Of a stretch of 10,931 bases of DNA, positions 1 to 10,931 are shown in pieces. Every line of letters begins with the position of its first letter. Position 1 is the stretch's first letter. The position numbers and the translations under genes are program-made. The notes beneath the pieces are model-generated. The model saw only the letters and a program-made list of their open reading frames with translations. It was not told the origin of the DNA and did no database searches. The DNA comes from a virus (lineage: Duplodnaviria; Heunggongvirae; Uroviricota; Caudoviricetes): the IMG/VR virus record IMGVR_UViG_2663763377_000009; one strand, given 5' to 3'.

Positions 1-1143
1 CTATGCTGTTTTGATATCTACGATAATCCAGTCTTTACCACGATCATCATTGTATCGGTCGGTCATTTTTCTGGATTTATGGCCTAACAACTTTTGCGTA
101 TCCAGACCCTGTTCCCGATATAACCGTTCTGACAGAGATCGCTGCTCATGAAATGTGGGCGCAGTTCCTTGCTCCCATTTTATGCCACATTTTTCCCGGG
201 CCTTTTTAAAAGCCGTTGTCAGAGTATTTGCAGAAACCTGGTCTCCTCTGTTTGCTTGAGAGGTAGTGTGACGGTAATGGACCAGATATTTACTAACAAC
301 AGCATCCCTGCACTGAGATATAACTTCACGAAGGGTAATATTCAGAGCATCGCATTTCAGGTTAAGCGGAATAGCAAGTTTTGAACCGGTTTTTTCCTGA
401 GTAATGTGCAACATGTCGTCCCATATATCAGAGAATTTCAAATTGCAGATATCGCCTAAACGTTGTCCAGTAACAAGAGCAAGTAGCATGCCGCATTTTA
501 AATAGGGCTGCCGTCTGCTTACGCTGTCAAATATTGCCTGCCATTCGGGCAGTGATAATCTTTGGCGGTTTACTCGATTTCGCGGTTGTTTTGTTGCCTG
601 CGCTGGGTTAAATCCTGGCGGAACATGTCCTGCGTGTTGTGCTTCTTTGAAGACGTCGATTAACACCATTCTCACGACTTGCGCCATCCTGTTATGACCT
701 TCAGCCTTTACAGCATCAATTATTTCGGCAATATCAAGTGCGGTAATATCCTTGAGGTGTTGTATTCCACAATGCTCACGGAAAAGACGAATGGGTTTGC
801 CTTTTTGCCGATAGGAGTTGGGTCTTAGTTCATTATGTTGCAGCCTGTCCTCCTGGATAGAAATATATTTATCAAGCCATTCTGTCACCGTAATGTCTGA
901 GCGCCTGCCTTTCATTCTTTCCAGACGCTCATTGACGCTTAATATTTGTCGGGTACGTTGTTCAGCAATAATGGTATTTGCTTCAGTAGCAACTTGTTTT
1001 GCTTCATTCTCATCAGTTCCTAAGCTATGAAAACGACCGGATAGTGGATGTTTGTATTGCCAATATACCTTTCCGGTTCGCTTATCTAATTTGCAATATA
1101 AATTGGGTATAGAGATTTTGTGAGATCGGGGTCTAGCAGCCAT
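1..1143 (-). CDS. int: Phage integrase, tyrosine recombinase (380 aa); stop codon at 1-3, so attP/attL should lie just outside the window
   Basis: Uninterrupted 380-aa ORF; C-terminal region carries the tyrosine-recombinase catalytic pattern (LVTGQRLGD ... HEQRSLSERLY ... LGHKSRKMTDRYNDD, i.e. R, H-x-x-R, H, Y); sits next to an overlapping xis-like gene as in lambda. Confidence 0.9.
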   Translation of the reverse strand: MAARPRSHKISIPNLYCKLDKRTGKVYWQYKHPLSGRFHSLGTDENEAKQVATEANTIIAEQRTRQILSVNERLERMKGRRSDITVTEWLDKYISIQEDRLQHNELRPNSYRQKGKPIRLFREHCGIQHLKDITALDIAEIIDAVKAEGHNRMAQVVRMVLIDVFKEAQHAGHVPPGFNPAQATKQPRNRVNRQRLSLPEWQAIFDSVSRRQPYLKCGMLLALVTGQRLGDICNLKFSDIWDDMLHITQEKTGSKLAIPLNLKCDALNITLREVISQCRDAVVSKYLVHYRHTTSQANRGDQVSANTLTTAFKKAREKCGIKWEQGTAPTFHEQRSLSERLYREQGLDTQKLLGHKSRKMTDRYNDDRGKDWIIVDIKTA

Positions 1144-1369
1144 CAGCGATTATCCGTTGGAGTTTTGGGTTTGCGTTTATTGGGAGTTGCGGTTCTGCAA
1201 GCGTTCCTACAAAACGGGAATTTCGGTCAATCATCCAGTAGCGACCAACTTTTATAGCGGGTGGGGCCATCATTTTCCCTTGCGCGTATTTTTTCAGAAC
1301 TCGCTCACTTGGTGCTAAGTCCCCAAATTCTTCTTTAGCCCAGTCCTGTAAAGTGATTAGTCGAGACAT
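1133..1369 (-). CDS. xis: Excisionase-like small DNA-binding protein (78 aa), overlapping the int start by 11 nt
   Basis: Small basic ORF immediately upstream of int with overlap, as for lambda xis-int; strong Shine-Dalgarno (GAGGAGG) 4-5 nt before the ATG on the minus strand; sequence recalled as the excisionase family of enterobacterial prophages. Confidence 0.75.
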   Translation of the reverse strand: MSRLITLQDWAKEEFGDLAPSERVLKKYAQGKMMAPPAIKVGRYWMIDRNSRFVGTLAEPQLPINANPKLQRIIADGC

Positions 1370-1508
1370 TTGTCCTCCTCTTAGCTGCTGAGGGAGTTTG
1401 TGACCGATATATCTGACATGATATTAAGCTCATGGCAGGTACATCTCTTGACTGGTCATAGAGATAAATTTAATGCTGAGAAATGCAGTATTGAATTTAT
1501 CAATTTTT

Positions 1509-1748
1509 CTATTTCCTGCGCATGTCACGTAACTTCTTAATGTGTTCTGCCGTTTCGATCTCTTCTGCTATCCGATCTGCATCAGCTTTATTCACAGGTT
1601 CAAAGTCATGATTAAAGCGGAACATGCTGGCGATACATGTTCTGCCTTTTCGGATGTAGTGAACTTTGTTGTGGGTAGAACGCAGGATTTTGCAGGGAGT
1701 GCCGTGGTGGTCGACGTACCAGGTGTTAGGGTCAATCACTCTGAACAT
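1509..1748 (-). CDS. Hypothetical small phage protein (79 aa), possibly DUF4222-like
   Basis: ORF in the leftward early operon, co-oriented and overlapping the next gene by 17 nt; family assignment is from memory only. Confidence 0.55.
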   Translation of the reverse strand: MFRVIDPNTWYVDHHGTPCKILRSTHNKVHYIRKGRTCIASMFRFNHDFEPVNKADADRIAEEIETAEHIKKLRDMRRK

Positions 1749-2061
1749 TCTTGACCTTGTGTTGTGCGGATTGATATTCAGTGCTGATATTCACCTTTAT
1801 AGCGAACACCTTTACCGGTTTATCGCCAAAGTGCGGATGTGTGATTGTCTTCACTTCATATCCGTCATACGGAACATCAATTCTGCGACTGGAATCGTCG
1901 CGCTTCGGATATCCCTTTGTGATAATCAGGCGGTCATATTCCCGGAACATAATTCGCTTATTCCAGTAGTCATTACACAAGCGATACTCTTCCGTTTTCT
2001 CTCCGCGAATCATGGCATCGAAGTATTCACTTTTAACAGCAAGTTGCAGGTTAGCCATCAC
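1732..2061 (-). CDS. ASCH/DUF3850-like (PUA-fold) protein, 109 aa
   Basis: N-terminal motif EYFDAMIRGEKTEEYR ... REYD resembles the ASCH/DUF3850 signature; start overlaps the upstream gene stop as ATGA. Confidence 0.55.
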   Translation of the reverse strand: MMANLQLAVKSEYFDAMIRGEKTEEYRLCNDYWNKRIMFREYDRLIITKGYPKRDDSSRRIDVPYDGYEVKTITHPHFGDKPVKVFAIKVNISTEYQSAQHKVKNVQSD

Positions 2062-2279
2062 TTAATCCCCCTTTGTTTGCGGATAAGCTCCAGATCTTGC
2101 TGGCAACTGGCGCAAGTACGACAACCCTGAACGGCCAGGCGTCTTCGTTCATCTATCGGATCGCCACACTCACAACAATGAGTGGCAGATACAGCCAGGT
2201 AGTTCAGGCGGCGCATTTTTATTGCTGTGTTGCGCTGTAATTCTTCTATTTCTGATGCTGAATCAATGATGTCTGCCAT
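2058..2279 (-). CDS. TraR/DksA-family C4 zinc-finger protein (73 aa)
   Basis: Four cysteines arranged CxxC ... CxxC (CCECGDPIDERRRLAVQGCRTCASC) in a ~70-aa protein, typical of phage TraR/DksA-like proteins. Confidence 0.65.
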   Translation of the reverse strand: MADIIDSASEIEELQRNTAIKMRRLNYLAVSATHCCECGDPIDERRRLAVQGCRTCASCQQDLELIRKQRGIK

Positions 2280-2285
2280 CTTTCA

Positions 2286-2375
2286 TTAATCCCTGAACTG
2301 TTGGTTAATACGCTTGAGGGCGAATGCGAATAATAAAAAAGGAGCCTGTAGCTCCATGATGATTTTGTTTTTCAT
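2286..2375 (-). CDS. Candidate 29-aa hydrophobic peptide (MKNKIIMELQAPFLLFAFALKRINQQFRD), not in the ORF track
   Basis: Hand translation of the minus strand; fills the gap between two genes, its ATG lies 2 nt after the upstream stop (TGAACATG), and its stop is 6 nt before the TraR-like start; hydrophobic core APFLLFAFAL. Confidence 0.3.
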   Translation of the reverse strand: MKNKIIMELQAPFLLFAFALKRINQQFRD

Positions 2376-2377
2376 GT

Positions 2378-2593
2378 TCACCGTTCCTTAAAGACGCCGT
2401 TTAACATGCCGATCGCCAGGCTTAAATGAGTCGGTGTGAATCCCATCAGCGTTACCGTTTCGCGGTGCTTCTTCAGTACGCTACGGCAAATGTCATCGAC
2501 GTTTTTATCCGGAAACTGCTGTCTGGCTTTTTTGATTTCATAATTAGCCTGACGGGCAATACTGCGAAGGGCGTTTTCTTGCTGAGGTGTCAT
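2378..2593 (-). CDS. Hypothetical early protein (71 aa from MTPQQ...; alternative 93-aa form would start at 2659)
   Basis: ORF co-oriented in the operon; start chosen at the internal ATG because the longer frame overlaps a better-looking small ORF; no family recognised. Confidence 0.5.
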   Translation of the reverse strand: MTPQQENALRSIARQANYEIKKARQQFPDKNVDDICRSVLKKHRETVTLMGFTPTHLSLAIGMLNGVFKER

Positions 2594-2673
2594 TGAACAA
2601 GTCCCATGTCGGCAAGCATAAGCACACAGAATATGAAGCCCGCTGCCAGAAAAATGCATTCAGTGGTTGTCAT
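2590..2673 (-). CDS. Candidate 27-aa hydrophobic peptide (MTTTECIFLAAGFIFCVLMLADMGLVQ)
   Basis: Hand translation; its stop overlaps the downstream ATG as ATGA (translational coupling geometry); membrane-helix-like composition. Confidence 0.25.
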   Translation of the reverse strand: MTTTECIFLAAGFIFCVLMLADMGLVQ

Positions 2674-2756
2674 ACCTGGTCTCTCTCATCTGCTTCTGCT
2701 TTCGCCACCATCATTTCCAGCTTTTGTGAAAGGGATGTGGCTAACGTATGAAATTC

Positions 2757-2861
2757 TTAGTCTGTTTCTACTGGTATTGGCACAAACCTGACTCCAATTT
2801 GAGCGAGGCTATGTGCCATCTCGATACTCGTTCTTAACTCAACGGGAGATGCTTTGTGCAT
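2757..2861 (-). CDS. Candidate 34-aa ORF (MHKASPVELRTSIEMAHSLAQIGVRFVPIPVETD)
   Basis: Hand translation; GAGGGG 4 nt upstream of the ATG; lies in an otherwise unassigned ~340-bp stretch downstream of exo. Confidence 0.2.
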   Translation of the reverse strand: MHKASPVELRTSIEMAHSLAQIGVRFVPIPVETD

Positions 2862-3012
2862 ACAGCCCCTCGTTTATTATTTATCTCCTAAGCCAGCCGC
2901 TGGGCTTTCAGTGGATTTTGGATAACAGAAAGGACGGGAAATACCCAGTCTCGCTTTGTAACGGAGTAGATGAAAGTGATCGCGCCTACCCGGATATTAT
3001 CGTGAGGGTGCG

Positions 3013-3693
3013 TCATCGCCATTGCTCCCCAAATACAAAACCAATTTCAGCCAGTGCCTCGTCCATTTTTTCGATGAACTCCGGCACCATCTCGTCAAAA
3101 CTCGCCATGTACTTTTCATCCCGCTCAACCACGACATAATGCAGTCCTTCACGCTTCATACGCGGGTCATAGTTGGCAAAGTACCAGGCATCTTTTCGTG
3201 TTACCCACATGCTGTACTGCACCTGGGCCATGTAAGCCGACTTTATGGCCTCGAAACCACCGAGCCGGAACTTCATGAAATCCCGGGAGGTAAACGGGCA
3301 TTTCAGCTCAAGGCCATTGCCGTCACTGCATAAACCATCGGGAGAGCAGGCGGTGCGCATACTTTCGTCGCGATAGATGATCGGGGATTCAGTAACATTC
3401 ACGCCGGAAGTGAATTCAAACAGGGTTCTGGCGTCGTTCTCGTACTGTTTTCCCCAGGCCAGCGCCTTAGCATTAACTTCCGGAGCCACACCGGTGCAAA
3501 CCTCAGCCAGCAGGGTGTGGAGGTAGGACATTTTCATGTCAGGCCACTTCTTTCCGGAGCGGGGTTTTGCTATCACGTTGTGAACTTCTGAAGCGGTGAT
3601 GACGCCGAGCCGTAATTTGTGCCACGCATCATCCCCCTGTTCGACAGCTCTCACATCGATCCCGGTACGCTGCAGGATAATGTCCGGTGTCAT
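3013..3693 (-). CDS. exo: Lambda exonuclease (Red-alpha), 226 aa
   Basis: Translation [40 protein letters not shown]... matches my recollection of phage lambda Exo almost residue for residue; same length; directly downstream of bet with ATGA overlap. Confidence 0.95.
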
Positions 3694-4475
3694 GCTGCCA
3701 CCTTCTGCTCTGCGGCTTTCTGTTTCAGGAATCCAAGAGCTTTTACTGCTTCGGCCTGTGTCAGTTCTGACGATGCACGAATGTCGCGGCGAAATATCTG
3801 GGAACAGAGTGGCAATAAGTCGTCATCCCATGTTTTATCCAGGGCGATCAGCAGAGTGTTAATCTCCTGCATGGTTTCATCGTTAACCGGAGTGATGTCG
3901 CGTTCCGGCTGGCGTTCTGCAGTGTATGCAGTATTTTCGACAATGCGCTCGGCTTCATCCTTGTCATAGATACCAGCAAATCCGAAGGCCAGACGGGCAC
4001 ACTGAATCATGGCTTTATGCCGTAACATTCGTTTGGGATGCGACTGCCACGGCCCCGTGATTTCTCTGCCTTCGCGAGTTTTGAATGGTTCGCGGCGGCA
4101 TTCATCCATCCATTCGGTAACGCAGATCGGATGATTACGGTCCTTGCGGTAAATCCGGCATGTACAGGATTCATTGTCCTGTTCAAAGTCCATGCCGTCA
4201 AACTGCTGGTTTTCGTTGATGATGCGGGACCAGCCATCAACGCCCACCACCGGAACGATGCCGTTCTGCTTATCAGGGAAGGCGTAAATTTCTTTCGTCC
4301 ACGGATTAAGGCCGTATTGGTTGGCGACGATCAGCAATGCGATGAACTGCGCATCGCTGGCATCGCCTTTAAATGCTGTCTGGCGAAGAGTGGTGATCAG
4401 TTCCTGTGGGTCGACAGAATCCATGCCGACACGTTCAGCCAGCTTCCCTGCCAGCGTTGCGAGTGCTGTACTCAT
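3690..4475 (-). CDS. bet: Lambda Beta single-strand annealing protein (Red-beta), 261 aa
   Basis: Translation [37 protein letters not shown]... matches recalled lambda Bet; length 261 aa; gam-bet-exo order. Confidence 0.95.
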
Positions 4476-4480
4476 CCGTT

Positions 4481-4777
4481 TTATACCTCTGAATCAATAT
4501 CAACCTGATGGTGAGCAATGGTTTCAACCATGTACCGGATGTGTTCTGCCATGCGCTCCTGAAACTCAACATCGTCATCAAACGCACGGGTAATGGCTTT
4601 TTTGCTGGCCCCGTGGCGTTGCAAATGATCGATGCATAGCGATTCAAACAGGTGCTGGGGCAGGCCTTTTTCCATGTCGTCTGCCAGTTCTGCCTCTTTC
4701 TCTTCACGGGCGATCTGCTGGTAGTGACGCGCCCAGCTTTGAGCCTCAAGACGATCCTGAATGTAATAAGCGTTCAT
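4481..4777 (-). CDS. gam: Gam, RecBCD inhibitor (98 aa, corresponds to the short GamS form)
   Basis: Translation [44 protein letters not shown]... matches recalled lambda GamS; AGGAG 8 nt upstream; only 75 nt separate it from the upstream gene, so no long GamL form is possible here. Confidence 0.9.
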
Positions 4778-4852
4778 GGCTGAACTCCTGAAAATGGCTG
4801 TGAAAATATCGCCCGCTAAATGCCAGGCTGATTAGGAAAACAGGAAAGGGGA

Positions 4853-5059
4853 TTAGTGATTCAGGCCGTTACCGCGTCCGTCGAGAAAAACTTCCACGAG
4901 CAAATCACGGGTATAAGTGCGCTCGATGCCGCGATGCAGATAAAGCCGTCCGCGTAAATTAGCTGATGCAGTCCAGGTACCATCTTTGTGTTTGACCAGC
5001 ATTCCTGGCATGACCGCACCTCGATTAACGGTCTGCGTTCCGTAATGTTGATGAACCAT
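4853..5059 (-). CDS. Hypothetical 68-aa protein at the position lambda uses for kil (MVHQHYGTQTVNRGAVMPGMLVKHKDGTW...)
   Basis: Start chosen at the internal ATG preceded by AGGAG plus 5 nt; the longer 136-aa frame in the track begins with TTG and has no ribosome-binding site. Function is by synteny only. Confidence 0.5.
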   Translation of the reverse strand: MVHQHYGTQTVNRGAVMPGMLVKHKDGTWTASANLRGRLYLHRGIERTYTRDLLVEVFLDGRGNGLNH

Positions 5060-5336
5060 AAAAACTCCTGCCCGTAAGCTGGGCTGCTGAACATATAGAG
5101 ACTTCTGCGCGTATTCAGGCGGTGGATGGCCGCCGGTTGTCATAACTAAGCCGCCTCGTTGAAGCGACTGAGGTATGAGGTGTTGAGTTGATTTCAGCTG
5201 GTCACACCGACGTTCACACGTCCGTTTCACCCCTCGCACTCCCCGGAGCCTGCTGAAATTCAAGCTGCGGATCTAAGCGGTCATCGCAACGGTGAATCAG
5301 GTGGTTGCCGTATCGTTGTGTTGTTGCGATGAACTC

Positions 5337-5365
5337 ATTTAAAACTATAGTTGTTTTACCGTCAA
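5337..5365 (-). promoter_or_regulatory. Putative pL promoter with embedded OL operator (-35 TTGACG, 17-nt spacer, -10 TTAAAT, read on the minus strand)
   Basis: Minus-strand segment gttgTTGACGgtaaaacaactatagttTTAAATgagttc is nearly colinear with the PR segment gttgTTGACTaaaaacaaccatagtttTAATCTtgattc; both carry GTTGTT/AACAAC dyads. Confidence 0.5.
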
Positions 5366-5500
5366 CAACAAAAGTTGTTTCATTGGTTGTTTTAGATATA
5401 ACTGGTTGTATTTAGGATGGATTTATTTTGTGACTTGCATCGCATAGCGATAACTGAAGCGGGGGGTATGGTGGTTTTTTGAACGGTGTGTGATGAGGGG

Positions 5501-5531
5501 AGGCAAAAGAAAACCCGGCACGACGGCCGGG
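5501..5531 (-). terminator. Rho-independent terminator ending the cI to cassette transcript (lambda t-imm equivalent)
   Basis: 6-bp GC stem CCCGGC/GCCGGG with a 6-nt loop, followed on the minus strand by TTTTCTTTTG, 9 nt after the stop of the 168-aa gene. Confidence 0.6.
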
Positions 5532-5539
5532 GAGGGGGG

Positions 5540-6046
5540 TCATTTTAATCTATCAAGGAGTGACTCTCTTTCCTTCTTCTCTGATTCTCTTCGGTTTAAT
5601 AACGCTTTAAACTCTTGAAGCTCAACCATTATTTTATGAACGAATACACTGGTATAGAGAGAAATAAAGAGTAATCCACCTGAAATTTTTAAGACCCTGA
5701 AGAGTAGGGCTTGATCATTTGTGCTTGCTATTAACCCCAAGATTACAAACAAAGTTGAAAATACATAGAAAGCTAATAATAAAACCAATTTCAGTCTCTT
5801 GGATTTGACTATTGGCACTAATCGCCTAACCTCACTAGGGGTTAAAGACGAGTGGTCATTGGCCTCATTTGCCTTAAAAATGGCTTGTATACAATATGAT
5901 AATGGCAATTGCATGAGTCCAACCACAGCCCACGGAGCAGTTAGGACAACACCCGGTGTAATATAGCCCAATGCTGACTTGAACAAAAAGTAACCAGCAA
6001 AATAGAAGACCAACATACCAATAAGGTGGATGATGTTCGATTTCAT
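5540..6046 (-). CDS. Small integral membrane protein, 168 aa, about four predicted transmembrane helices and a charged C-terminal tail; occupies the rexB position
   Basis: Hydrophobic stretches IIHLIGMLVFYFAGYFLF, GVVLTAPWAVVGLMQLPL, LKLVLLLAFYVFSTLFVILGLIAS, LLFISLYTSVFV; strong AAGGAGG 7 nt upstream of the ATG; AT-rich codon usage unlike flanking genes; no similarity to RexB that I can see. Confidence 0.75.
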   Translation of the reverse strand: MKSNIIHLIGMLVFYFAGYFLFKSALGYITPGVVLTAPWAVVGLMQLPLSYCIQAIFKANEANDHSSLTPSEVRRLVPIVKSKRLKLVLLLAFYVFSTLFVILGLIASTNDQALLFRVLKISGGLLFISLYTSVFVHKIMVELQEFKALLNRRESEKKERESLLDRLK

Positions 6047-6067
6047 TATCGCCCTCCTTTTGGTAGG

Positions 6068-7090
6068 TTATTTTGCAACCAATTCTCCGGCATCAAGTTT
6101 TGAGAACAGCCACTTATGCATTTTTAAGAATAAATCATTTTCATCAATAATGCCATTGTTATATTCAACGCTAATTTTTCCGGATAATTTTATCTCTTTT
6201 CCCGTTATTTCCCCACCGCCTTGAAGTTTGATGCTAATATCATCCTCATCTAGATGTCGTAGTGAGGTAGCAATACTGTCTATAACAGCTTGACCGCTAT
6301 CATTTGTTTTTCTGAAGTATGTAATCTCGAGGCTTACTTGTAAATTGGCCTCATCTAATGAATCTTTAATGTTTATATCATTTGCCCAGTTATCGCCAAA
6401 AAATGCTTTTAGTAGCGCACCTCCTTTCCCTATTGGGCGGTATTTTATTGTCTTCACCGAACCATTTGAAAAGGAGGGTGTTTGGTTCTCTGAATTTTTA
6501 ACTTCTGAAGTAATGGGTAATCCACCAATTTTTATGCTCTTGGCTGGTGCTTTCTCCATTTTTTTCATCGTTTCTTCGGATGGCTTATCTTGAAGCATTA
6601 ACACAGATTCTTTTTCATCTGTGAATGTATTAATTAGCCAATTCAAATGCGCCTCAAGCTCCCTTGCTCGAAGCGATGTGGATTGAACGATCATGACATG
6701 GTTGTTTAGTACACCAAAATATAAAATTGAATCTACAAACTCTCTTTTTTTGTCACTACGTTTATCTCCATCAATAATTATATCATTAGACGTGATGGAG
6801 TTAATGTCATAAAATTTAACATTATCACTAAGCTCTAATAGAGACTGGCTTTTGTCTTTTTCAAATAAAACCAGTTGCCCAAAAAGTATAGTTTTGTATG
6901 TGTCGCTTTTATTTAAGAAACGACACCCCGAATTTTCATCTGAAGGTGTTATTTTTTCTTGTCTACTAAGTACTTTTTCTGCAACGCCGCCCTCACCTAT
7001 AATACTAAGTAGTATGTTTTGTAATGATGATTTGCTGTGTGGGATTACTGCTTTTTTATAATGAACGACTTTTTGTCTGTTATCTTTCAT
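6068..7090 (-). CDS. Unknown soluble protein, 340 aa; occupies the rexA position downstream of the repressor
   Basis: Long uninterrupted ORF, Lys/Asp/Asn/Ile-rich, no catalytic motif recognised; separated by 21 nt from the downstream membrane protein gene, suggesting one operon. Confidence 0.75.
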   Translation of the reverse strand: MKDNRQKVVHYKKAVIPHSKSSLQNILLSIIGEGGVAEKVLSRQEKITPSDENSGCRFLNKSDTYKTILFGQLVLFEKDKSQSLLELSDNVKFYDINSITSNDIIIDGDKRSDKKREFVDSILYFGVLNNHVMIVQSTSLRARELEAHLNWLINTFTDEKESVLMLQDKPSEETMKKMEKAPAKSIKIGGLPITSEVKNSENQTPSFSNGSVKTIKYRPIGKGGALLKAFFGDNWANDINIKDSLDEANLQVSLEITYFRKTNDSGQAVIDSIATSLRHLDEDDISIKLQGGGEITGKEIKLSGKISVEYNNGIIDENDLFLKMHKWLFSKLDAGELVAK

Positions 7091-7147
7091 TGCTATAGTC
7101 CAACTAGTATTGAATAAATAAACACAGTAAAGACATAAAAATTTCTT

Positions 7148-7177
7148 ATAGCTACCGATAACGTAATCGGTAGCTAT
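7148..7177. promoter_or_regulatory. Perfect 12-bp inverted repeat ATAGCTACCGAT (loop aacgta) ATCGGTAGCTAT between the repressor gene and the cassette
   Basis: Read directly: 7148-7159 is the reverse complement of 7166-7177. On the minus-strand RNA the hairpin is followed by AAGAAATTTTTAT, so it may be a partial terminator or attenuator, or else a protein-binding palindrome. Confidence 0.4.
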
Positions 7178-7212
7178 TACAAATCAACCAAAGGTAATTC
7201 TTTACATACTAC

Positions 7213-7902
7213 CTACCCATGCTTCCTGTAGGTCTGCGGCATGCTCCCAATAACTTTCCCGAAGATAAACACCCGGTTCATCTCGTCTTTCTCAATTGGG
7301 TCCCACGGCGAGTAGCTCTTGTTATCAGAGATAACCAGTAGCTTATCCTTCATCATTTGCAGGCGCTTTACATGGGCTGTGTCGTCGTACAGAAACGCAT
7401 AGATACCATCACCGTCGAAAGATTTAACTGTGATATCAACGAACAGCAGATCACCTGGTTCGATCGTTCCTGACATGCTGTCACCACGCACGTTAATGAT
7501 GCGGATATTTTCCGCCTTCCTACCATCGAACATGTGACGAGCATCGTCAAACGAGTACTCAACCGAGCGTAGAACTTCTACAAACTCACGGTTGATGACT
7601 CCCGGCCCAGCACTGACTTCTATATCAAGAACGTCAATCTTAAAGTATTTGGAATGGCTGACAGTTGATAGTATTGGTTGCACTGTACTGTCTGACATAT
7701 TTCCAACGCCAGAAGATAACCATTCTGCGCGCACACCCAAAGCGTTCGCGATCTCCACGATTTTAGTTGTTTGGTTAGCTTTCCCTGTTTCGATTTTCTG
7801 AATAGCAGCTTGGCTAACCCCGACCAAATCCCCAAGCGCCTTTTGTGTAAGGCCTCGCGCTAATCTGGCTTCTTTAAGTCTTTCTGAGAGTGTTGTTTTC
7901 AT
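7213..7902 (-). CDS. cI-like prophage repressor, 229 aa: N-terminal HTH (XRE type) plus C-terminal S24 LexA-like autopeptidase domain
   Basis: HTH region LTQKALGDLVGVSQAAIQKIETGK; S24 signature GDSM ... VKRL (Ser/Lys dyad); divergent from a Cro-like gene across an operator region. Start set at 7902 because the 22-codon extension to 7968 would run through the PR promoter. Confidence 0.85.
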   Translation of the reverse strand: MKTTLSERLKEARLARGLTQKALGDLVGVSQAAIQKIETGKANQTTKIVEIANALGVRAEWLSSGVGNMSDSTVQPILSTVSHSKYFKIDVLDIEVSAGPGVINREFVEVLRSVEYSFDDARHMFDGRKAENIRIINVRGDSMSGTIEPGDLLFVDITVKSFDGDGIYAFLYDDTAHVKRLQMMKDKLLVISDNKSYSPWDPIEKDEMNRVFIFGKVIGSMPQTYRKHG

Positions 7903-7908
7903 AGTCCA

Positions 7909-7937
7909 AATGTACAACCAAGGTTTTATTCCATCAA
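7909..7937 (-). promoter_or_regulatory. Putative PRM (-35 TTGATG, 17-nt spacer, -10 TACATT on the minus strand), predicted start site at or beside the cI ATG (leaderless)
   Basis: Hexamers read from the sequence; the -10 ends 6 nt before the ATG at 7902, and there is no Shine-Dalgarno, mirroring lambda PRM/cI. Confidence 0.4.
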
Positions 7938-7943
7938 ACGAAA

Positions 7944-7979
7944 ATGGTTGTTGACTAAAAACAACCATAGTTTTAATCT
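7944..7979 (+). promoter_or_regulatory. PR promoter (-35 TTGACT 7951-7956, -10 TAATCT 7974-7979) overlapping a 9-bp-arm dyad operator ATGGTTGTT (gactaaa) AACAACCAT
   Basis: Inverted repeat 7944-7952 / 7960-7968 read directly; 17-nt spacer; GGAGG 5 nt before the ATG at 8007. Confidence 0.55.
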
Positions 7980-8006
7980 TGATTCAAATTAACCACGGAG
8001 GTTGTT

Positions 8007-8237
8007 ATGAACCCAGCTATCAAAACAGCGATCAATATCGTTGGTTCACAAAAGAAACTGGGCGCTGCCTGCGAAGTTTCACAGCAGGCCGTCTATAAGT
8101 GGCTTCACAACAAAGCAAAGGTATCCCCTGAACATGTCGGCAGCATTGTTACGGCTACTGGTGGAGTAGTGAAGGCATACCAGATTCGCCCGGATCTTCC
8201 GAAGTTGTTTCCACACACCGAAAAGAACGCAGCTTAA
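8007..8237 (+). CDS. Cro-like HTH regulator of the YdaS family (76 aa)
   Basis: Divergent from the repressor; motif AINIVGSQKKLGAACEVSQQAVYKWL ... ATGG resembles YdaS-type small HTH proteins of E. coli prophages. Confidence 0.8.
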   Translation: MNPAIKTAINIVGSQKKLGAACEVSQQAVYKWLHNKAKVSPEHVGSIVTATGGVVKAYQIRPDLPKLFPHTEKNAA

Positions 8238-8249
8238 ATTTCCATTTCA

Positions 8250-8262
8250 CGCTCTTTAACAA
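8250..8262 (+). promoter_or_regulatory. boxA element CGCTCTTTAACAA (nutR-like position between the cro and cII analogues)
   Basis: Matches the boxA consensus (rrn boxA GCTCTTTAACAA; lambda nut boxA CGCTCTTA...). No GC-rich boxB-like hairpin is evident directly downstream. Confidence 0.5.
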
Positions 8263-8306
8263 TAAGCAATCAACTTAACAGTCAATTCAAACTAAAGGAG
8301 TCAATT

Positions 8307-8846
8307 ATGCAACCACTTACATACCAACAGACTAGCGGATTTAGCCCGACTGCGGTGATAAATCGTTCTCAAACAAAACAGGTGCCAGGCCACGAAAAAA
8401 TCCGTGATGCCGTCCGCGCCTGGTCGGCTGAAGATAATCAGGATGTCGTTGCCACACTCATTGTGAATGAGTATCGGGAGCAGGGCGGCGGCGCCATCGA
8501 TTTCCCTGATGATGTCAGCCGTGCACGCCAGAAGCTGTTCCGCTTCCTCGATAACAAATTCGATTCTGAAAAATACCGAAATAACGTGCGTGAACTGACC
8601 CCGGCAATTCTGGCGGTACTACCGCTGGAATATCGCGGTTACCTGGTTGAGCAGGATAGCTTCATGGCTAGGTTGGCTGAAATGGAAAAGGAACTCAGTG
8701 AGGCAAAACAGGCTGTCATTCTCAACGCACCACGCCACCAGAAACTGAAGGAGATGAGTGAAGGTATTGTGTCGATGTTTCGTGTGGACCCGGATCTGGC
8801 TGGTCCATTGATGGCGATGGTTACCACCATGTTGGGGGCAATATGA
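8307..8846 (+). CDS. YdaT-family protein (179 aa), cII functional analogue candidate
   Basis: Motifs EYREQGGGAIDFP and LTPAILAVLPLEYRGYL resemble recalled YdaT of the Rac and CP-933P prophages; located where lambda has cII; AAGGAG 6 nt upstream. Confidence 0.7.
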   Translation: MQPLTYQQTSGFSPTAVINRSQTKQVPGHEKIRDAVRAWSAEDNQDVVATLIVNEYREQGGGAIDFPDDVSRARQKLFRFLDNKFDSEKYRNNVRELTPAILAVLPLEYRGYLVEQDSFMARLAEMEKELSEAKQAVILNAPRHQKLKEMSEGIVSMFRVDPDLAGPLMAMVTTMLGAI

Positions 8847-8932
8847 CAGGCTCAGAAATGGCGAAAGCCGGTCTGCGGGAACAGAGCCGACTTTCAGGTG
8901 CAAATCGTAACACACTCATTGCGGGAGGAATT

Positions 8933-9862
8933 ATGGCAAACACTGCTGAGATATTCAATTTTCCAGTGCCGGATGTGGCACAAAAGGAGCCGCGCGTGGC
9001 AGATCTCGATGATGGTTATACGCGCATTGCAAATGAGTTGCTGGAAGCTGTGATGCTGGCCGGATTAACACAGCACCAGCTTCTGGTCTTCCTGGCTGTC
9101 ATGCGCAAAACATATGGCTTTAATAAAAAACTGGATTGGGTGAGCAACGAGCAACTTTCCGAGTTGACCGGGATATTGCCGCACAAGTGTTCTGCTGCAA
9201 AAAGTGTTCTGGTAAAGCGTGGGATTTTTATTCAGAGCGGGCGGAATATCGGCATTAATAATGTGGTCAGTGAATGGTCAACATTACCCGAATCAGGTAA
9301 GAAAAATAAAGTTTACCTGAAAGAGGTAAATTTACCTGAATCAGGTAAGAAAAGTTTACCCAAATCAGGTAAAGACGTTTACCCGAATCAGGTAAACACA
9401 AAAGACAAACTAACAAAAGACAATATAAAACCTTTTTCGTCCGAGAATTCTGGCGAATCCTCTGACCAGCCAGAAAACGATCTTCCTGTGGTGAAACCGG
9501 ATGCTGCAATTCAGAGCGGCAGCAAGTGGGGGACAGCAGAAGACCTGACCGCCGCAGAGTGGATGTTTGACATGGTGAAGACCATCGCGCCATCAGCCAG
9601 AAAACCGAATTTTGCAGGGTGGGCCAACGACATCCGCCTGATGCGTGAGCGTGACGGGCGTAACCATCGCGACATGTGCGTTCTGTTCCGCTGGGCCTGC
9701 CAGGACAACTTCTGGTCCGGTAACGTGCTGAGTCCAGCAAAACTCCGCGACAAGTGGACTCAGCTCGAAATTAACCGCAACAAGCAACAGGCTGGTGTGA
9801 CTGCCAGCAAACCAAAACTCGACCTGACAAACACTGACTGGATTTACGGGGTGGAGCTATGA
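8933..9862 (+). CDS. O: Replication initiator protein O (309 aa from MANTAEIFNF...; an in-frame ATG at 8843 would add 30 codons)
   Basis: C-terminal half (ENSGESSDQPENDLPVVKPDAAIQSGSKWGTAEDLTAAEWMFDMVKTIAPSARKPNFAGWANDIRLMRERDGRNHRDMCVLFRWACQDNFWSGNVLSPAKLRDKWTQLEINRNKQQAGVTASKPKLDLTNTDWIYGVEL) matches recalled lambda O; GGGAGGAA RBS before 8933; contains the iteron array. Confidence 0.9.
   Translation: MANTAEIFNFPVPDVAQKEPRVADLDDGYTRIANELLEAVMLAGLTQHQLLVFLAVMRKTYGFNKKLDWVSNEQLSELTGILPHKCSAAKSVLVKRGIFIQSGRNIGINNVVSEWSTLPESGKKNKVYLKEVNLPESGKKSLPKSGKDVYPNQVNTKDKLTKDNIKPFSSENSGESSDQPENDLPVVKPDAAIQSGSKWGTAEDLTAAEWMFDMVKTIAPSARKPNFAGWANDIRLMRERDGRNHRDMCVLFRWACQDNFWSGNVLSPAKLRDKWTQLEINRNKQQAGVTASKPKLDLTNTDWIYGVEL
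9285..9440. repeat. Phage origin of replication: five ~18-19-bp iterons (consensus about TTTACCCGAATCAGGTAA) followed by an AT-rich segment
   Basis: Direct repeats at about 9285-9302, 9312-9330, 9332-9349, 9355-9374 and 9378-9397, then acaaaagacaaactaacaaaagacaatataaaacc; lies inside O, as in lambda. Confidence 0.8.
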
Positions 9863-10449
9863 AAAATATTGCCGCGCAGATGATTAACTTTGACCGTGAG
9901 CAGATGCGTCGAATCGCCAACAACATGCCGGAACAATACGACGAAAAGCCGCAGGTGCAGCAGGTGGCGCAGATCATCAACGGTGTGTTCAGCCAGCTGC
10001 TTGCGACATTTCCGGCAAGCCTCGCGAACCGCGACCAGAACGAGCTGAACGAAATCCGCCGTCAGTGGGTTATGGCTTTCCGTGAAAATGGAATTACCAC
10101 TATGGAGCAGGTTAACGCCGGAATGCGCGTGGCCCGCCGACAGGAGCGACCATTCCTGCCGTCGCCCGGCCAGTTCGTAGCGTGGTGTAAGCAGAGTGGC
10201 GGGGCGTTAGGTATCACTGTTGACCAAGTCATAACCGAATACTGGGATTGGCGTAATCGTTCCTTCGAATTCACTTCCAGCGAGCATTTCCCGTGGTCAC
10301 AGCCTGTCATGTACCACATCTGCGTCGAACTGCGCCACCGCAGCACAGAGCGCCAGTTAACGCATGGTGAGCTGGCGCGTGAAGCCGGCGATCTGCTGGA
10401 CATGTGGGAGAGGCGCGTCACCGAGGGCAAACCAGTACCGCCTGTATAG
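9859..10449 (+). CDS. P: Replication protein P homologue (196 aa), N-terminal ~110 aa lambda-like, C-terminal half divergent and apparently shorter than lambda P
   Basis: MKNIAAQMINFDREQMRRIANNMPEQYDEKPQVQQVAQIINGVFSQLLATFPASLANRDQNE... matches recalled lambda P up to about FVAWC; the rest aligns only loosely; start overlaps the O stop (ATGA). Confidence 0.8.
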   Translation: MKNIAAQMINFDREQMRRIANNMPEQYDEKPQVQQVAQIINGVFSQLLATFPASLANRDQNELNEIRRQWVMAFRENGITTMEQVNAGMRVARRQERPFLPSPGQFVAWCKQSGGALGITVDQVITEYWDWRNRSFEFTSSEHFPWSQPVMYHICVELRHRSTERQLTHGELAREAGDLLDMWERRVTEGKPVPPV

Positions 10450-10510
10450 TAAAATACTATATTATTTTCTATGTATCACATGCACAGCGATAAAACCGGA
10501 TAAATGATTT

Positions 10511-10542
10511 ACACTGTAAAGATCTATCTGTCTTTACAGTGT
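10511..10542. promoter_or_regulatory. Perfect 12-bp inverted repeat ACACTGTAAAGA (8-nt spacer) TCTTTACAGTGT, ~30 bp upstream of the hicA promoter
   Basis: Read directly; no U-tract follows on the plus strand, so an operator (for example for HicB) or a structural element is as likely as a terminator for P. Confidence 0.4.
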
Positions 10543-10570
10543 GGTTCAGAAGTCATGCGAATGAAATAAT

Positions 10571-10599
10571 TTGCTTTTGTGTGTATGCGTGTGTATAAT
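10571..10599 (+). promoter_or_regulatory. Strong sigma-70 promoter for hicAB (-35 TTGCTT, 17-nt spacer, TG-extended -10 TATAAT)
   Basis: Perfect TATAAT at 10594-10599 with TG at -15/-14; GGGAGG RBS at 10613-10618 before the hicA ATG. Confidence 0.6.
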
Positions 10600-10622
10600 T
10601 GTTTTCAGGTTAGGGAGGACAT

Positions 10623-10805
10623 ATGAAATCTGCTGACCTGTTGAAAGAACTGATAGCTGCTGGTTGCGAGTTGAAACGGCATAAGGCAAGCAGTCACCAG
10701 ATATGGTGGTCGCCAATAACAGGAAAAACTTTTCCTGTTCCTCATCCTAAAAAGGACTTGCCGCTAGGTACTGTCAGATCGATCAAAAAAATGGCGGGGA
10801 TTTAA
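10623..10805 (+). CDS. hicA: HicA-family toxin (mRNA interferase), 60 aa
   Basis: MKSADLLKELIAAGCELKRHKASSHQIWWSPITGKTFPVPHPKKDLPLGTVRSIKKMAGI fits the HicA/YcfA pattern (ELxRxKGSH ... VPxHxxKDLxxGTxxSIxKxAG). Confidence 0.85.
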   Translation: MKSADLLKELIAAGCELKRHKASSHQIWWSPITGKTFPVPHPKKDLPLGTVRSIKKMAGI

Positions 10806-10829
10806 TCCCCGCCGACTTTGGAGGTAGCC

Positions 10830-10931
10830 ATGTTCTTTTCTGTTGGTGTCGAAACACCGAAAGATGATCATACAGCATACGGTATCACTGTTCCGGTTTT
10901 TGATTGCTTTGATTTTGGATGTGTTTCTGCT
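10830..10931 (+). CDS. hicB: HicB-family antitoxin, 5-prime partial (runs off the window end)
   Basis: N-terminus MFFSVGVETPKDDHTAYGITVPVFDCFDFGC... fits the HicB N-terminal pattern (YxVxxE...GYxVxVPDLPGC); GGAGG 5 nt upstream; directly after hicA. Confidence 0.7.
   Translation, partial: MFFSVGVETPKDDHTAYGITVPVFDCFDFGCVSA

Follow-up and report, generated by a model that had tools for sequence, protein, structure and literature searches.

A prophage P gene truncated at a junction with IncI2 plasmid hicAB DNA: a probable chimeric contig end

The lambdoid prophage analysed here stops, in its sequence record, at a replication gene P that is cut after 196 codons and joined directly to the hicAB region of an IncI2 conjugative plasmid. 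The truncation is genuine in this sequence record. The join itself is probably a chimeric contig end that arose during library preparation or assembly; whether artefactual or real, it is a lesion of a single record and not a P subtype. The P gene combines lambda-type domains I and II with a domain III of the phi80 type, the two parts meeting at a natural mosaic boundary. After codon 196, between positions 10445 and 10446, the sequence switches without homology to IncI2 backbone and encounters a TAG stop at once. The plasmid part comprises the intergenic DNA ahead of hicA, then hicA itself and the beginning of hicB, from a published addiction module, HicA(T)B. According to the preferred reading, the cell itself would have an intact P, with hicAB located on an IncI2 plasmid.

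The junction and its two flanks

The window (the whole stretch of DNA analysed, 10,931 bp) corresponds to the end of the 68,312-bp draft contig AOQX01000038.1, and the junction is found 486 bp from the contig end. The positions of the features discussed below are collected in Table 1. On the left side, chromosomal prophages of E. coli 317, M-17, A4, A24 and others share positions 1-10445 at 100% identity, and the DNA of E. coli 536 is likewise 100% identical over the P region up to 10445. On the right side, the match over positions 10445-10931, again at 100% identity, is to IncI2/MOBP-typed conjugative plasmids some 60 kb in size, such as pSTEC2018_607-d. Both flanks show zero substitutions relative to these common sequences. 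A three-way alignment reveals a clean switch, the intact allele reading GTG CGC CGG where the window reads GTA TAG, and the DNA identity of P to its full-length allele ends exactly at the stop codon. The proposal of the initial annotation that the 3' end of P had been replaced by hicAB-bearing DNA is thus borne out by the alignment. Its description of this DNA as a hicAB insert occupying the position of ren has to be abandoned, since the segment is the backbone of an IncI2 conjugative plasmid, identical throughout to pSTEC2018_607-d, and no moron.

Table 1. Features of the O-P region and of the adjoining plasmid segment (window coordinates)
Feature	Position	Strand	Details
O-type replication initiator gene	8843..9862	+	longest ORF 339 aa; Pfam PF04492 8.5e-34
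Truncated P (helicase loader) ORF	9859..10449	+	196 aa; stop TAG made at the junction; identical to WP_020245480.1
Lambda-type N-terminal module of P, aa 1-110	9859..10188	+	106/110 identical to lambda P
phi80/HK639-type domain III of P, aa 111-196	10189..10446	+	from alignment
Breakpoint CCTGT/ATAGTAAAA	10445..10446	.	left, chromosomal prophage 100%; right, IncI2 plasmid 100%
IncI2 plasmid backbone segment, 486 bp	10446..10931	+	pSTEC2018_607-d 10648-11133; reaches the end of AOQX01000038.1
Perfect inverted repeat ACACTGTAAAGA-N8-TCTTTACAGTGT	10511..10542	.	12-nt arms, 100% complementary
Candidate hicA promoter	10571..10599	+	TTGCTT 10571-10576, 17-nt spacer, TATAAT 10594-10599
hicA toxin gene, 60 aa	10623..10805	+	Pfam PF07927 1.1e-15; GGGAGG ribosome-binding site 10613-10618
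G/C-rich hairpin GGCGGGGATT-T-AATCCCCGCC and TTT tract	10793..10819	+	hairpin 10793-10813, TTT 10817-10819; before hicB GGAGG 10820-10824
hicB antitoxin gene, first 34 codons	10830..10931	+	ATG 10830; cut by the contig end

At the join, prophage and plasmid have at most 1 nt in common (the T at 10445), and beyond this nucleotide the plasmid has no similarity to the tail region of P, which eliminates a misjoin at a shared repeat or k-mer. An insertion mediated by an IS or a recombinase was also rejected, as neither an IS end nor an evident recombinase site was found at the join. In the plasmid, the breakpoint maps to a small AT-rich inverted repeat (ATATAGTA-AAA-TACTATAT), which is situated in the intergenic DNA separating hicA from an ORF of 147 aa. 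The junction is covered in none of 5426 complete E. coli genomes and is absent from 72,556 PLSDB plasmids and 50,697 INPHARED phage records; likewise, no match to a 36-mer across the junction was found in the GTDB representative genomes, IMG/VR or the JGI metagenomes.

The signals described earlier downstream of P belong to the plasmid. The palindrome is indeed perfect; it is native to the plasmid intergenic region upstream of hicA, where it is identical in the plasmids, and was not made by the junction. As a guess, it may serve as an operator. The strong independent promoter that had been reported next to it can be retained in part: its TATAAT element is perfect, but the -35 element matches at 3/6 positions and a consensus promoter scan called, by its criteria, no site upstream of hicA. 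Similarly, the hicAB module is present as far as hicA is concerned, whereas hicB is limited to its first codons in the window; the identical plasmids encode a complete HicB of 145 aa (PF15919). The exact HicA protein was found in 25,469 blocks of the searched collection, and among the matches listed (ten places) its neighbors are of the IncI2 type, one of these places being on a 4.9-Mb contig. The HicA(T)B subfamily of IncI2 plasmids is characterized by an internal "noncanonical intrinsic terminator" (PMC11878559). The same layout is found here, with hicA upstream of hicB and a hairpin followed by a short U tract ahead of the hicB ribosome-binding site, and the hairpin with its TTT tract matches the published internal terminator (PMC11878559).

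Chimeric contig end or genuine recombination

The join is most likely artefactual because the junction is unique, because it is so close to the contig end, and because each flank reproduces a common sequence without a single mutation. Chimeric contig ends in older draft assemblies are, as a general impression, more common than chromosomal IncI2 segments; this, together with the rarity of the latter, favors a chimera. Moreover, the lack of microhomology is what blunt-ligation chimeras usually show, and it is unusual for illegitimate recombination in E. coli. Assemblers seldom join sequences without overlap, and a chimeric origin must therefore assume chimeric templates or long chimeric reads. 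As a general caution, a homology-free junction near the end of a draft contig needs a check of the reads before any biological reading.

The main competitor of the chimera, which is distinctly less probable, is a real junction. Illegitimate (homology-independent) recombination would have linked all or part of an IncI2 plasmid to the prophage within P, removing the last 41 P codons and displacing or deleting the DNA downstream. The prophage would be inducible, DnaB would not be loadable at its origin, and the element would be replication-defective and locked in, with a self-promoted hicAB. Several observations are in line with such an event. The junction is clean in the contig and is followed by 486 bp of plasmid DNA, a kind of overlap-free join that is rare from assemblers. 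IncI2 DNA occurs in other chromosomal contigs: the hicAB segment is found in a chromosomal contig at 1 of 383 places in complete genomes, and also on the 4.9-Mb contig (locus L015), so that such segments are occasionally chromosomal and a real integration is conceivable. The decay of prophages through breaks in replication genes is common, as illustrated by a rearranged P (P0109) situated in the middle of a contig. The O gene and its iterons are intact, as expected for a recent single hit, and a contig break soon after the junction is expected if the strain also carries a copy of the plasmid. Against these points stand the uniqueness of the junction among all six collections searched, its position only 486 bp from a draft contig end, a join at which neither microhomology nor an IS end or recombinase site is present, and the zero substitutions of both flanks relative to common sequences.

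A more specific form of the genuine join, which is somewhat less probable again, can be proposed: the lambdoid prophage may have captured an IncI2 fragment by end joining, maybe following an aborted conjugation, with the loss of the C-terminal lasso of P and the gain of HicA(T)B. Genes for a mobilization protein and for LPD7 (a putative relaxase) are located about 4 kb from the hicAB region, and the fragment could accordingly be the product of an aborted conjugation. If the junction is real, it constitutes a single-strain example of the inactivation of a prophage by plasmid DNA. It would also provide a natural P(delta-domain IV) allele with which the structural view of the lasso as the first and indispensable hold on DnaB could be probed. 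The replication-defective cryptic prophage put forward by the initial annotation is consequently only one reading of the sequence, in which the 3' end of P is replaced; the junction is that of one contig, and a chimera, the reading preferred here, is at least as likely.

The P allele, its conserved tail and helicase loading

The region upstream of the break has the organization of a lambdoid replication module. The public gene call of O starts at 8933 and gives a protein of 309 aa; the gene looks intact and contains five ori iterons, TTACC(C/T)(G/A)AA(T/A)(C/G)AGGTAA, at 9284-9400, followed by an A-rich stretch. The P gene adjoins this iteron-bearing gene downstream and overlaps it, as in lambda P-type loaders, the O stop and the P start sharing the ATGA at 9859-9862. 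The prophage in the window retains int, xis, exo-bet-gam, the repressor, O and ori. Two unannotated ORFs at 5540-7090 gave no match with PADLOC.

The 196-aa protein scores 167 bits with the Pfam family PF06992 (Phage_lambda_P), for which the cut-off is 26, residues 38-195 covering positions 1-161 of the 162 of the profile. It also matches the PDB lambda P chain 8V9T_V (phmmer, E = 9.9e-77), and weakly the crystal chain of lambda P domain III, 8V9S. As had been noticed initially, the first 110 residues or so are close to lambda P (96% identity) and only a loose similarity (20/86, 23%, over residues 111-196) is observed from FVAWC onward. The estimate of a protein about 35 residues short of lambda P was likewise accurate: its end aligns at lambda residue 199, leaving 34 lambda residues uncovered. 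The divergence at FVAWC is nevertheless unrelated to the truncation to which it had been tied. Residues 111-196 are identical at 80/86 positions to phi80 gp14 and at 82/86 to HK639 P, i.e. at 93-95%, and the divergence from lambda P therefore corresponds to a normal mosaic boundary, which is common to many intact prophages. In deposited phages, the best-matching proteins are phi80 gp14 and the P proteins of HK639, mEp237 and HK225, to which the N-terminal 110 residues are identical at about 70%; in the prophage of E. coli 536, the P protein is 100% identical over residues 111-196. In LF82, AR_0077 and other intact E. coli prophages, the match to the window stops at 10187. Judged by these alignments, 10187 is a natural boundary between lambda-type and phi80-type P, and the divergence after about residue 110 is ordinary lambdoid mosaicism rather than damage. 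The switch is found near the boundary between domains II and III of lambda P (domain limits from PMC12661323); residues 1-110 correspond to domain I and most of domain II, and domains I-III are all present, aligned to residues 1-199 of lambda P and 1-197 of phi80 gp14.

The hybrid lambda/phi80-type P is an ordinary and widespread allele of E. coli prophages, with a full length of 237 aa. Relatives that are 97-100% identical occur as 237-aa proteins on at least 1000 contigs and as a 228-aa variant on 932 contigs. After residue 196, the full-length allele continues with the 41 residues RRAIAAPAAEHGPTPIQLLQAKYNRNKSNGMVRSGKEDNKE; it carries …CCGCCTGTGCGCCGGGCGATT…, and the intact 3' end of P reads …CCTGTGCGCCGGGCGATT…. 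Residues 197-226 are near-invariant in 15 full-length relatives, in particular R197, I200, G208-P211, L214, L215, Y219, K223 and G226, and this conservation extends across six genera as named by the sources (Escherichia, Klebsiella, Citrobacter, Raoultella, Enterobacter and Lelliottia). On the basis of sequence conservation, the tail of the phi80-type subtype is considered homologous to the lambda lasso and under clear purifying selection. An AlphaFold model of the 237-aa allele, of low confidence (mean pLDDT 61), displays an extended stretch at 189-210 followed by a helix at 211-224.

The 196-aa protein, in contrast, is the only member of its cluster (WP_020245480.1) and comes from a single place, NCBI contig AOQX01000038.1 of assembly GCA_000397665.1. 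The sole other 196-aa entry among the relatives is a different chimera. The one-off P gene P0109 is rearranged by an inversion that leads onto the antisense strand of O. A second carrier of the exact protein, the Logan contig ERR2213689_7997, first appeared as an independent 196-aa P; it stops at ...CCTGTGCG and is the full-length allele cut by the end of its contig. This coincidence carries no weight because a look-up by exact sequence selects such contigs. The absence of the 196-aa P from the Logan read assemblies is weak evidence, several other entries known only from NCBI being absent from them as well.

According to established lambda genetics, the N-terminal half of lambda P contacts O. 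The 196-aa product retains this O-facing, crown-forming half together with domain III, and the whole C-terminal lasso is gone. The missing part can be appreciated from the lambda structures, in which P comprises an N-terminal lasso (domain I, residues 1-29), domain II (about 30-119), domain III (about 120-192) and a C-terminal lasso or grappling hook (domain IV, 193-233) made of an extended segment and then a helix (PMC12661323). The N-terminal half of the protein forms the P-P crown seen in the structure, domain III makes its own contacts with DnaB, at sites on adjacent CTDs, and domain IV grips the DH-LH nexus of DnaB, with the lasso-helix residues A215-F226 contacting the DH element (PMC12661323). 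The lasso forces the DH-LH interface open and is ordered in each of the six protomers of the early B6P6 state; it has been proposed to be the first element to bind DnaB (PMC12661323). The involvement of the C-terminal part of P in the interaction with DnaB, mentioned in the initial annotation, agrees with these structures, the lost part being the lasso that holds the helicase. The 196-aa protein has no counterpart of A215-F226, and the conserved GPTP..LL..Y...K..G tail of the phi80-type subtype is missing. By analogy with the lambda structures, DnaB loading should fail for want of domain IV, and the 196-aa product, if it exists, could presumably not open and load DnaB.

That the protein might instead be a working loader of altered specificity, its phi80-type domain III being sufficient without the lasso, is very improbable. 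The DnaB contacts made by domain III itself (PMC12661323) would speak for it, as would the robust DnaB binding kept by lambda P 103-233 (PMC6391071), though this construct includes the lasso. On the other hand, the lasso is precisely the element that pries the DH-LH interface apart and is ordered in all six B6P6 protomers, the tail is under clear purifying selection in the phi80-type subtype, and no second lasso-less P was found among the relatives. Finally, the idea that 196 aa is the natural length of a subtype, with a complete and functional ORF, is refuted: even if the Pfam model is matched end to end (1-161/162) and the protein looks whole, the best 120 relatives measure 228-237 aa (partial and short-contig rows excluded), the tail past residue 196 is conserved in six genera, and it is right at the stop codon that the DNA ceases to be identical to the full-length allele.

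This case has a consequence for annotation. The PF06992 model ends at about residue 195 and leaves the lasso uncovered, so that a truncated P fills the whole model and passes for a normal replication protein P in annotation; the RefSeq entry WP_020245480.1 is indeed labelled plain "replication protein P". Domain annotation cannot separate a loader-dead truncation from a complete protein in this family.

Comparison with known systems

The closest known system is the P protein of the prophage of E. coli 536 and many other strains (WP_000788796.1, 237 aa, cluster P0005), whose residues 1-196 are 100% identical to the window protein. These prophages carry the same O gene and the same upstream gene order, and differ by the last 41 residues of P, which are replaced in the window by a stop codon and plasmid DNA. 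The lambda P protein (233 aa; PDB 6BBM, 8V9T, 9OA1, 9OA2 and 8V9S) belongs to the same PF06992 family and its gene likewise overlaps the end of O. It is 96% identical to the window protein over residues 1-110; domain III is homologous, yet only 23% identical, the window being of the phi80 type, and lambda domain IV, past residue 199, has no counterpart. The reverse picture is given by phi80 gp14 (229 aa) and by the P proteins of HK639, mEp237 and HK225, which are 93-95% identical over residues 111-196 but about 70% identical over the N-terminal 110, and which have retained a 32-residue tail (…RRAIAAPAAEQGPTPIQLLLAKYNRNKSNGMV).

The HicA(T)B system of IncI2 plasmids was studied on the mcr-1 IncI2 plasmid p45 (Lin et al. 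2025, NAR 53:gkaf125). In both this system and the window, hicA precedes hicB and the two genes possess GGAGG ribosome-binding sites. They differ by their surroundings: the neighbor of the module is a 147-aa ORF on the plasmids and a prophage gene in the window, where hicB is cut at 34 codons. Every component of the sequence is therefore already known, whether the lambda/phi80-mosaic P, the O/iteron origin or the IncI2 HicA(T)B module.

Structure and annotation of the P protein

The junction at which the P gene of the window runs into IncI2 plasmid DNA is not the only discontinuity of this gene. A recurrent mosaic boundary is found within P at about position 10187, at the FVAWC motif near the border between domains II and III. 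Several prophages, among them those of LF82, AR_0077 and A36, match the window at 97-99% as far as this position and are divergent beyond it.

The loss of the C-terminal lasso is invisible to domain-based annotation. Comparison with the window gene (9859-10449) indicates that the Pfam profile PF06992 (Phage_lambda_P) stops at about residue 195 and leaves the lasso outside. In consequence, a P protein cut short of its lasso is scored as a match over the full length and receives an ordinary name in RefSeq, as does the protein of the window (WP_020245480.1).

A second one-off P protein of 196 residues, P0109, is identical to that of the window up to about residue 163, beyond which the sequence of the O gene follows as its reverse complement. 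Past this fusion, ydaT, ydaS and cI are found in inverted order. The fusion point is an inversion breakpoint, located in the middle of a contig of 47.9 kb.

The plasmid-derived region

Upstream of hicA, the plasmid intergenic region contains two similar inverted-repeat units, possibly operators, TTTACA(C/T)TGTAAA…TCTTTAC(A/G)(G/A)TGT(G/A) (5925-5962 in the plasmid locus L006; 10507-10543 in the window). Only the right-hand unit of this pair, the perfect one, is kept in the window. The same hicAB also lies within an IncI2-like segment at about 937-4365 of locus L015 (GCA_949281545.1), where the segment adjoins a methyl-accepting chemotaxis protein gene. Since this contig is of chromosomal size (4.9 Mb), chromosomal copies of this IncI2 hicAB region exist.

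Genes of the early region

Features of the early region and the second 196-residue P
Feature	Sequence	Coordinates	Strand	Context
Two adjacent ORFs (340 aa, 168 aa)	window	5540-7090	-	between kil/gam and cI-like repressor
YdaS-like (76 aa) and YdaT-like (179 aa) genes	window	8007-8846		cro and cII positions
P0109, one-off 196-aa P	L020 (GCA_000703925.1, E. coli 2-210-07_S4_C1)	3001-3591

Two candidate starts are available for O: its longest ORF, of 339 aa, begins at 8843 and overlaps the end of the ydaT-like gene, and the public annotation places the start at 8933, for a product of 309 aa. The 340- and 168-residue ORFs have no Pfam match on record and no PADLOC match; they could constitute a prophage exclusion or defence pair, and the smaller product, as judged from its sequence, is hydrophobic and possibly membrane-spanning. 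Lambda carries rexAB/N at roughly the same position. The YdaS-like and YdaT-like families are "toxins" by their Pfam names; in phi80 and HK639, proteins of similar size encoded at the same position are annotated as CII-like.
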